From a bacterium (GTDB lineage: Bacteria; Patescibacteriota; Minisyncoccia; UBA6257; MFKM01): a stretch of 64,000 nt of DNA. The notes under the pieces were generated by a model. The model searched no databases and was not told the DNA's origin. It saw only the letters and a program-made list of their open reading frames with translations. The translations under genes and the position numbers were made by a program. The stretch is taken from positions 1,324 to 65,323 of the forward strand of contig JAUYAV010000019.1 of NCBI GenBank assembly GCA_030693325.1, in the 5' to 3' direction. Numbering within the stretch: the first letter of the stretch is position 1; each line of letters opens with the position of its first letter. This document shows, piece after piece, positions 41,709 through 41,754 of this stretch.

Positions 41709-41754
41709 CGAGAGAGAGAGAGAGAGAGAGAGAGAGAGAGAGAGAGAGAGAGAG
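41709..41754. repeat. (GA)23 dinucleotide microsatellite
   Basis: 46 nt of perfect GA repeats, read directly; ~300 bp upstream of the giant pilin gene. Confidence 0.95.

Follow-up and report, generated by a model that had tools for sequence, protein, structure and literature searches.

Phase variation driven by simple sequence repeats is textbook biology of host-adapted pathogens. The opa genes of Neisseria carry CTCTT pentamer repeats in the region coding for the signal peptide, and Haemophilus influenzae has a (TA)n repeat in the promoter of hifA/hifB. Neisseria nadA likewise has a (TAAA)n repeat in its promoter (PMC2791445). In Helicobacter pylori, a CT repeat near the 5′ end of oipA, where the signal peptide is encoded, switches the gene ON and OFF by slipped-strand mispairing, as also happens in hopZ, sabA and babB (PMC10564699). 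In targeted full-text searches, no account of ON/OFF switching by repeats turned up for Patescibacteria/CPR, and a targeted search of the CPR literature on slipped-strand mispairing found only one paper, in which Sieber et al. (2019) discuss the process for a hypervariable PTD-repeat gene of a Gracilibacterium (PMC6851277). Unlike the locus described here, that gene changes the sequence and length of its protein through in-frame repeats of 9 nt, with no frame-shifting ON/OFF (PMC6851277). In cultivated Saccharibacteria, attachment to the host depends centrally on type IV pili, the experimentally supported route in CPR bacteria (PMC9894109, PMC11623550).

The locus studied here lies in a stretch of 64,000 nucleotides (hereafter the window) from a Patescibacterium, an ultrasmall bacterium that, unlike H. 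pylori, is uncultivated. It contains a GA repeat that sits inside a small gene and breaks its reading frame; the repeats of relatives differ in length and frame, and the frame downstream of the repeat is under purifying selection. We consider it probable, though well short of assured, that this tract is a slipped-strand contingency repeat in a small gene heading a conserved two-gene cassette, the second gene of which encodes a giant pilin-like, tail-fibre-like adhesin. The kind of switch is a well-known one; the lineage is unusual for it, and the gene family had not been seen before. Similar to oipA, the locus has a dinucleotide repeat a few codons past the start of an envelope- or adhesion-linked gene, the count of units determines the frame, some genomes carry ON and others OFF alleles, and a conserved motif past the repeat defines the ON state. 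The two genes, however, share no sequence homology. The GA repeat on the coding strand is read as Arg-Glu, whereas that of oipA is read as Leu-Ser; it reaches 23.5 units, whereas 5-11 CT units have been tabulated for oipA (PMC10564699); and the product is a tiny single-pass membrane protein rather than an outer-membrane protein. With opa the locus would share ON/OFF control of translation, exerted by a repeat early in the coding region of a gene related to adhesins, although opa has a pentamer unit, forms a multigene family and undergoes experimentally proven switching. In hifA/hifB and nadA, too, a simple repeat lies close to a gene for a pilus or an adhesin, and this was the model of a first-pass annotation of the DNA. 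In those genes, however, the repeat lies between or upstream of promoter elements and alters transcription, whereas here it lies past the -10 box and the start codon, in an open reading frame (ORF).

The tract consists of (GA)23 and a final G, is perfect over 47 bp and occupies positions 41710-41756 of the plus strand. The first-pass annotation had described a 46-bp (GA)23 at 41709-41754; the repeat itself is real, but those coordinates were off by 1-2 bases. It had also placed the tract about 300 bp from the pilin-like gene, in agreement with the 303 bp that we counted from the end of the tract to the ATG at 42060. Its assignment to a non-coding upstream region, by contrast, has to be given up, because the tract begins 41 bases inside a small plus-strand coding sequence that has homologs elsewhere. 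An overlapping minus-strand ORF (LSLSLS; 41667-41870), which had been called an artefact, is indeed best read as the antisense of that real gene. No other dinucleotide run of at least 5 units occurs in the 64-kb window, which has a G+C content of 40.5%, and the chance expectation for the tract from base composition (roughly (0.2 x 0.3)^23 per position) is effectively zero. The GA repeat encodes alternating Arg and Glu in all three frames; thus, unit number alters only the frame of the sequence downstream. Across 22 long ORFs of the window, GAG makes up 19% of the Glu codons and AGA 24% of the Arg codons. Every Glu and Arg codon of the tract, in the window and in all relatives, is nevertheless GAG or AGA, and the exclusive use seen in the window tract would have a probability of ~9e-11 if the peptide alone were selected. 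Because these minority codons are used throughout, the purity of the repeat is maintained at the DNA level. Phase-variable loci have been delimited by a cut-off of at least 6 dinucleotide units (PMC6321876), and all loci analyzed here lie above it, the window having 23.5 units and the six relatives 7.5-12.5.

As assembled, the small gene runs from 41669 to 41791 on the plus strand. It comprises the ATG, the peptide MKLFHFFQSLSQVP, the (RE)n encoded by the tract (41 nt past the ATG) and an out-of-frame tail that reaches a TAG at 41789-41791, giving an OFF product of 40 aa. The conserved C-terminal frame (41752-41922, plus strand; ESQSGASKQVRRLAIINLLLILTVAFLVKVVFDLNSSLANPPHQSGVFVSPSQAAN) is offset by +2 from the frame of the ATG and stops at a TGA at 41920-41922. 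The frame of the start codon and that of the membrane segment are therefore mismatched in the assembled window. Removing one GA unit or adding two would give a joined protein of 83 or 85 residues, while adding one would truncate it again. A separate start for the membrane-segment frame was rejected, since a TGA lies at 41670 and no ATG, GTG or TTG is found ahead of the membrane segment. Three successive in-frame stops (TGA TAA TAG; 41920-41928) close the small gene. The most hydrophobic 19-mer of the product is LAIINLLLILTVAFLVKVV, with a mean hydropathy of 2.7, and the small protein is a single-pass membrane protein of 83 aa if in frame. The basic KQVRR ahead of the hydrophobic stretch, together with the positive-inside rule, suggests that the N-terminus is cytoplasmic. 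In an AlphaFold model of a homolog (P0001), the ER repeat and the membrane segment form one long helix, and pLDDT is >90 over the membrane segment.

Searching with the joined sequence gave P0001 (MFFHFLKKSSMSGNPERERERESKSAESKQVRRLAVINF...) and P0002 (MRWIHLITSERERESKQVRRLVIVN...), both of which have this layout and an in-frame (ER)n. The membrane-segment frame of the window is 74% identical to P0001 and 62% identical to P0002, and the aligned part of the downstream frame is 84% identical to P0001. The family was gathered by a profile search of 1.84 billion representatives and then of a word-indexed collection of 5.8 billion clusters, 12 of which belong to it. Its members share the core xRLxIxNxLLxLTxxFLIxVxFDL...NPP. 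ER repeats are also present in P0123, P0125 and P0131, and an ordinary Lys/Glu-rich stretch takes their place in P0124, P0128-P0130 and P0132. No family in Pfam, NCBIfam or PHROGs matched the small protein, and the Pfam matches obtained with a hand-built repeat-containing sequence were set aside as low-complexity noise under the cut-offs. A scan of viral contigs gave no match to the small protein. In GenBank, YvcK (MDP3052753.1) and the pilin-like protein (MDP3052754.1) have consecutive accessions with nothing annotated between them; the small gene is thus unannotated there.

Pure GA tracts occur at the homologous position in seven independent loci, namely the window and six loci from related Patescibacteria. 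These relatives are different species rather than strains (77-90% nucleotide identity in flanking genes). The tract measures 15 bp in L074, 17 bp in L072/L073 (after a degenerate GACA/GA run), 17-18 bp in L057/L058, 23 bp in L056 and 25 bp in L001, and all of these are in frame; it measures 21 bp in L059 and 47 bp in the window, and both are out of frame. Five loci are therefore ON and two OFF, a ratio to be read with the fact that 4 of the 5 ON loci were found via called proteins, a route able to detect ON alleles only. The three loci found via the neighboring gene or via DNA comprise two OFF copies (window, L059) and one ON copy (L001). In L059, which was the one new locus from a metagenome scan, the conserved N-terminal peptide (MSKLFHFFKSSTTTS) is followed by the tract and directly by a TAG, and the membrane domain lies in the +2 frame, as in the window. 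Counterparts of the N-terminal peptide are found in the same frame in L001 (MKLFNFFKSS), L059 (MSKLFHFFKSS), L074 (MKLFKSS) and L056 (MFFHFLKKSS). Neither OFF copy has lost its start codon, N-terminal peptide or -10 box. The membrane domain has a dN/dS of 0.11-0.33 in all six pairs compared (46 codons), and these values point to purifying selection on the membrane-segment frame. Since they include the OFF-OFF pair of the window and L059, they argue that the small gene is maintained and not decaying. The idea of a hypermutable, phase-variable tract raised by the first-pass annotation is thus borne out as far as tract lengths of 15-47 bp and ON and OFF alleles among relatives are concerned, but the direct target is the small membrane protein, by way of its reading frame, and not the promoter of the pilin gene.

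The L072 and L073 copies, from a relative of higher G+C content, carry a compound repeat (4040-4091 and 456-507, respectively) in which (GACA)n and GAGACA units pass into an uninterrupted (GA)8G; in L072 it is translated in frame as DRQTDRETERQRERER. This compound repeat may be an older, partly degenerated form of the GA tract.

An extended -10 box (TGTTATAAT; 41654-41662, plus strand) overlaps the stop codon of the upstream YvcK/CofD-family gene (40693-41661), which adjoins the small gene, and the ATG at 41669 follows six bases on. It is the only plus-strand promoter-like site between 41400 and 42300, and none was found on that strand from the tract to the start codon of the pilin-like gene. 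The sequence (A)TGTTATAAT recurs in L001, L056, L057/58 and L059, and CGTTATAAT in L074, despite differing upstream genes, and the distance from the box to the ATG is 6-8 nt in four loci. The upstream neighbor is yvcK in the window, L001 and L059, and a TraG/TrwB-like coupling protein gene in L056-L058; ahead of that gene, L057/L058 have a serine recombinase. In other words, the -10 box moves with the cassette but the upstream neighbor does not. The small gene is absent from the other 54 YvcK loci. Close members of the window's YvcK cluster are P0137 and P0138 (at least 90% identity), and neither the YvcK protein of the window nor P0003 (see below) had an exact match in the contig index. Within the 40 nt upstream of 50 ORF starts of the window, a Shine-Dalgarno-like motif precedes only ~2 of the 50 genes, and a TAnnAT box ends 6-8 nt ahead of the start codon in about ten. 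This suggests that leaderless mRNAs are widespread in the source organism, and a leaderless start of the small gene fits this habit of the genome. A search of the window with Rfam found only tRNAs. Among tRNA genes upstream of yvcK there is a free-standing ORF for a LAGLIDADG endonuclease (39200-39682, minus strand), and L059 has an ORF at the equivalent position (495-965, minus strand).

The second gene of the cassette (42060-45326, plus strand; MDP3052754.1) encodes a protein of 1088 aa, which was analyzed with Pfam, NCBIfam, PHROGs and an exact look-up. Its N-terminus is of the prepilin type, its C-terminal half matches phage tail-fibre families and includes a Peptidase_S74 chaperone domain, and the protein also contains a LamG/ConA-like lectin domain. 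The N-terminus, MNKSNTG|YTLIELLIYTVIF, has the layout of a prepilin, with a short basic leader ending in Gly, a hydrophobic helix and a Glu at +5. Pfam N_methyl scored 20.9 bits against a cut-off of 21.2, and many homologs carry PF07963 and are named pseudopilins. No match to this N-terminus was found in a scan of viral contigs. In every locus found, the small gene is directly followed by a large pilin-like homolog with a C-terminus that resembles phage tail fibres. Five close homologs of the pilin N-domain (P0005, P0008, P0009, P0076 and P0107) lack both the small gene and an upstream GA tract; thus, the association between small gene and pilin is confined to one clade. It is from this pilin-like neighbor that a role of the small gene at the cell surface, or in interactions with host or phage, may be surmised. 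Outside the window, the same 203,842-bp GenBank contig encodes a second pilin-like product, P0003 (MDP3052820.1; 157 aa), which is 90% identical to the N-terminus of the giant protein. The P0003 gene is possibly a silent or alternative copy available for recombination.

In the window, the small gene is separated from the pilin-like gene by a 137-bp AT-rich spacer, which could have its own promoter. The spacer holds the direct repeats that the first-pass annotation had located after a hairpin; there are four copies of AATTTTCAAT at 41930-41986 (plus strand) and nowhere else in the window. The hairpin is also present, with a T-run, at 41874-41891 (plus strand), inside the small-gene codons for NPPHQSGVFV, but it is weak, with 5 pairs and no covariation among four homologous loci. 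It folds no better than shuffled sequence, with z-scores of -0.2 to -1.4 (about -1 for the window hairpin). With such z-scores and no compensatory changes, a conserved terminator or attenuator was rejected as unsupported. Spacing is much shorter elsewhere: the two genes overlap as ATGA (-4) in L072/73 and lie 6 nt apart in L056, L059 and L074 and 14 nt apart in L057. The reverse complement of the spacer repeat, ATTGAAAATT, is repeated in L057 at ~4728-4790, at the start of the pilin-like gene, where it is translated as MKIENCKIENYK in the called gene; the called start of that gene may be wrong.

We propose the following mechanism. The conserved extended -10 box would probably direct transcription to start at or beside the ATG at 41669. 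At the assembled 23.5 units, translation would end after 40 residues (OFF), the window copy being one unit too long; with 22.5 or 25.5 units, the conserved transmembrane part would be produced (ON). Replication slippage would toggle single cells between the two states, and we would expect such switching to be frequent and reversible inside populations. More tentatively, the OFF state might also lower expression of the pilin-like gene, which would require co-transcription or coupling and would act via lost translational coupling or polarity. This knock-on effect would be more plausible in the relatives, with spacings of -4 to +14 nt, than in the window with its 137-bp spacer. Absence of a Shine-Dalgarno motif before the pilin gene is uninformative on coupling because almost no gene of the window has one. 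The locus has several features of translational phase variation, with a perfect non-triplet repeat in an ORF past its start, a length above the cut-off, and ON/OFF polymorphism in an otherwise intact gene. It is not of the promoter-repeat type known from hif and nadA, as the tract starts 48 nt past the -10 box, within a conserved ORF. Nor is it a leader peptide for attenuation of the his/trp type, since purifying selection acts on the conserved membrane domain that the ORF encodes and the weak hairpin shows no covariation.

Each of the rival explanations that we considered fits fewer observations than a contingency switch. The most serious one holds that the gene is always ON, that the tract is a tolerated, length-variable (Glu-Arg)n cytoplasmic helical linker, and that the OFF states of the window and L059 are one-unit sequencing or assembly errors. 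Such a linker would agree with in-frame alleles that differ in the number of ER pairs without harm, and with an ER run that is modeled as an extension of the transmembrane helix. Dinucleotide tracts are also prone to PCR stutter and long-read indel errors, the lack of a GenBank annotation means that no curator checked the frame, and the OFF state of either copy could be a one-unit consensus or assembly error. For L059, the frame change could alternatively come from an indel in the variable linker past the tract. However, two independent assemblies are out of frame, one with a tract of just 21 bp that is easily sequenced, and the 47 bp of the window would fit comfortably into an ordinary short read, had this assembly been built from such reads. 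Further, the exclusive use of minority codons argues for active DNA slippage, which would inevitably yield frame-shifted alleles, and we regard an always-ON gene as unlikely. We think it very unlikely that the small gene is a decaying pseudogene in the source lineage, within which the microsatellite expanded neutrally. The intact N-terminal peptide, start codon and -10 box all speak against decay, as does a downstream frame that is stop-free bar the frameshift, 84% identical to P0001 and constrained relative to its homologs (dN/dS of 0.14-0.33). The tract is also uninterrupted, unlike old decaying repeats such as the GACA/GA mix of L072. On the other hand, the window tract is about twice as long as that of any other locus, the extra spacer parts the small gene from the pilin-like gene, and remnants of mobile-element genes lie nearby. 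At 23.5 units, far above the 5-11 of oipA, the tract might be a runaway expansion rather than a tuned switch.

Two further alternatives would leave the tract a different task. Along the lines of the first-pass annotation, it would be cis-regulatory DNA for the pilin-like gene; it would act independently of frame, by promoter spacing, H-DNA or a roadblock to RNA polymerase. The tract does lie on the sole predicted transcription path into the pilin-like gene, and a 47-bp perfect homopurine/homopyrimidine mirror repeat is able to form H-DNA. Its 47 bp of alternating G and A exceed the ~20 bp of perfect homopurine mirror repeat associated with triplex capacity, which is a statement about capacity only, and triplex formation by the tract is possible on sequence grounds. 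The tract lies, however, downstream of the -10 box and the start codon and not between promoter elements, it is embedded in conserved coding sequence in 7/7 loci, and the tracts of relatives go down to 15 bp, which is marginal for stable triplexes. A frame-independent, cis-acting tract is, in our view, highly improbable. We give almost no credence to the other alternative, recoding, whereby RNA polymerase slipping on the GA repeat, or ribosomes shifting by +2 there, would restore the frame in a fraction of products and the OFF allele would confer low constitutive expression. Both OFF alleles do need the same shift, equal to one GA unit fewer, and AGA and GAG codons re-pair perfectly after a 2-nt move, as read directly from the sequence. 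With only two alleles, however, such agreement has a 50% chance, and neither a stimulatory structure nor a slippery heptamer is present. To our knowledge, transcriptional slippage is known from homopolymer runs, and the dominance of in-frame alleles among relatives means that recoding is not required.

If a repeat-driven switch does operate at this pilin-like adhesin cassette, it would offer episymbionts population-level bet-hedging in host encounter or phage evasion. The conserved small gene family, missed by current annotation, is a fixed partner of large pilin-like, tail-fibre-like proteins and gives a handle on their deployment. A bolder reading, possible but on balance doubtful, is that this is the first simple-repeat contingency switch described in Patescibacteria/CPR, in which a leaderless, repeat-bearing gene toggles a membrane partner and, via coupling, a giant pilin/tail-fibre adhesin. 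Cells of an obligate episymbiont would in this way hedge their bets on attaching to hosts or being exposed to phages, and the cassette, which occurs after either yvcK or a TraG-like/recombinase module, would itself be mobile.

Other repeats and modules were also noted in the window. The 8-bp palindrome GTAATTAC forms tandem arrays of 3-6 copies with a period of 9 in short intergenic gaps, both tandem and convergent. These arrays lie at ~763-786, 3592-3632, 8202-8241, 12262-12312, 14866-14897, 18254-18284, 36107-36151, 48333-48375 and 48986-49024. With at most 1 mismatch, AATTACNGTAATTAC has 41 matches in the window against 0.02 expected, and no GTAATTAC arrays were found in the 74 fetched loci. 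Terminator-like elements, arrays to which a protein binds and a repeat particular to this genome are all conceivable identities. Just past the pilin-like gene, a 32-nt remnant (45432-45463) corresponds to the 3′ end of the TraG-like gene seen in L056-L058. Between the pilin-like gene and recA (45347-47284), small modules are parted by five copies of a ~25-nt imperfect palindrome, TATCAAGGTTGAACCTCAATAAT (45347, 45718, 46222, 46443 and 47257), and by a perfect 23-nt palindrome, CTGATATACTTAAGTATATCAGT (45656 and 46358). The region includes an ORF pair at 45788-46217 that is HicB/HicA-like, as judged by eye from the sequence, and an antitoxin/ParE pair at 46597-47122. This series of palindrome-separated modules resembles an array of cassettes or the decayed remains of a mobile element.
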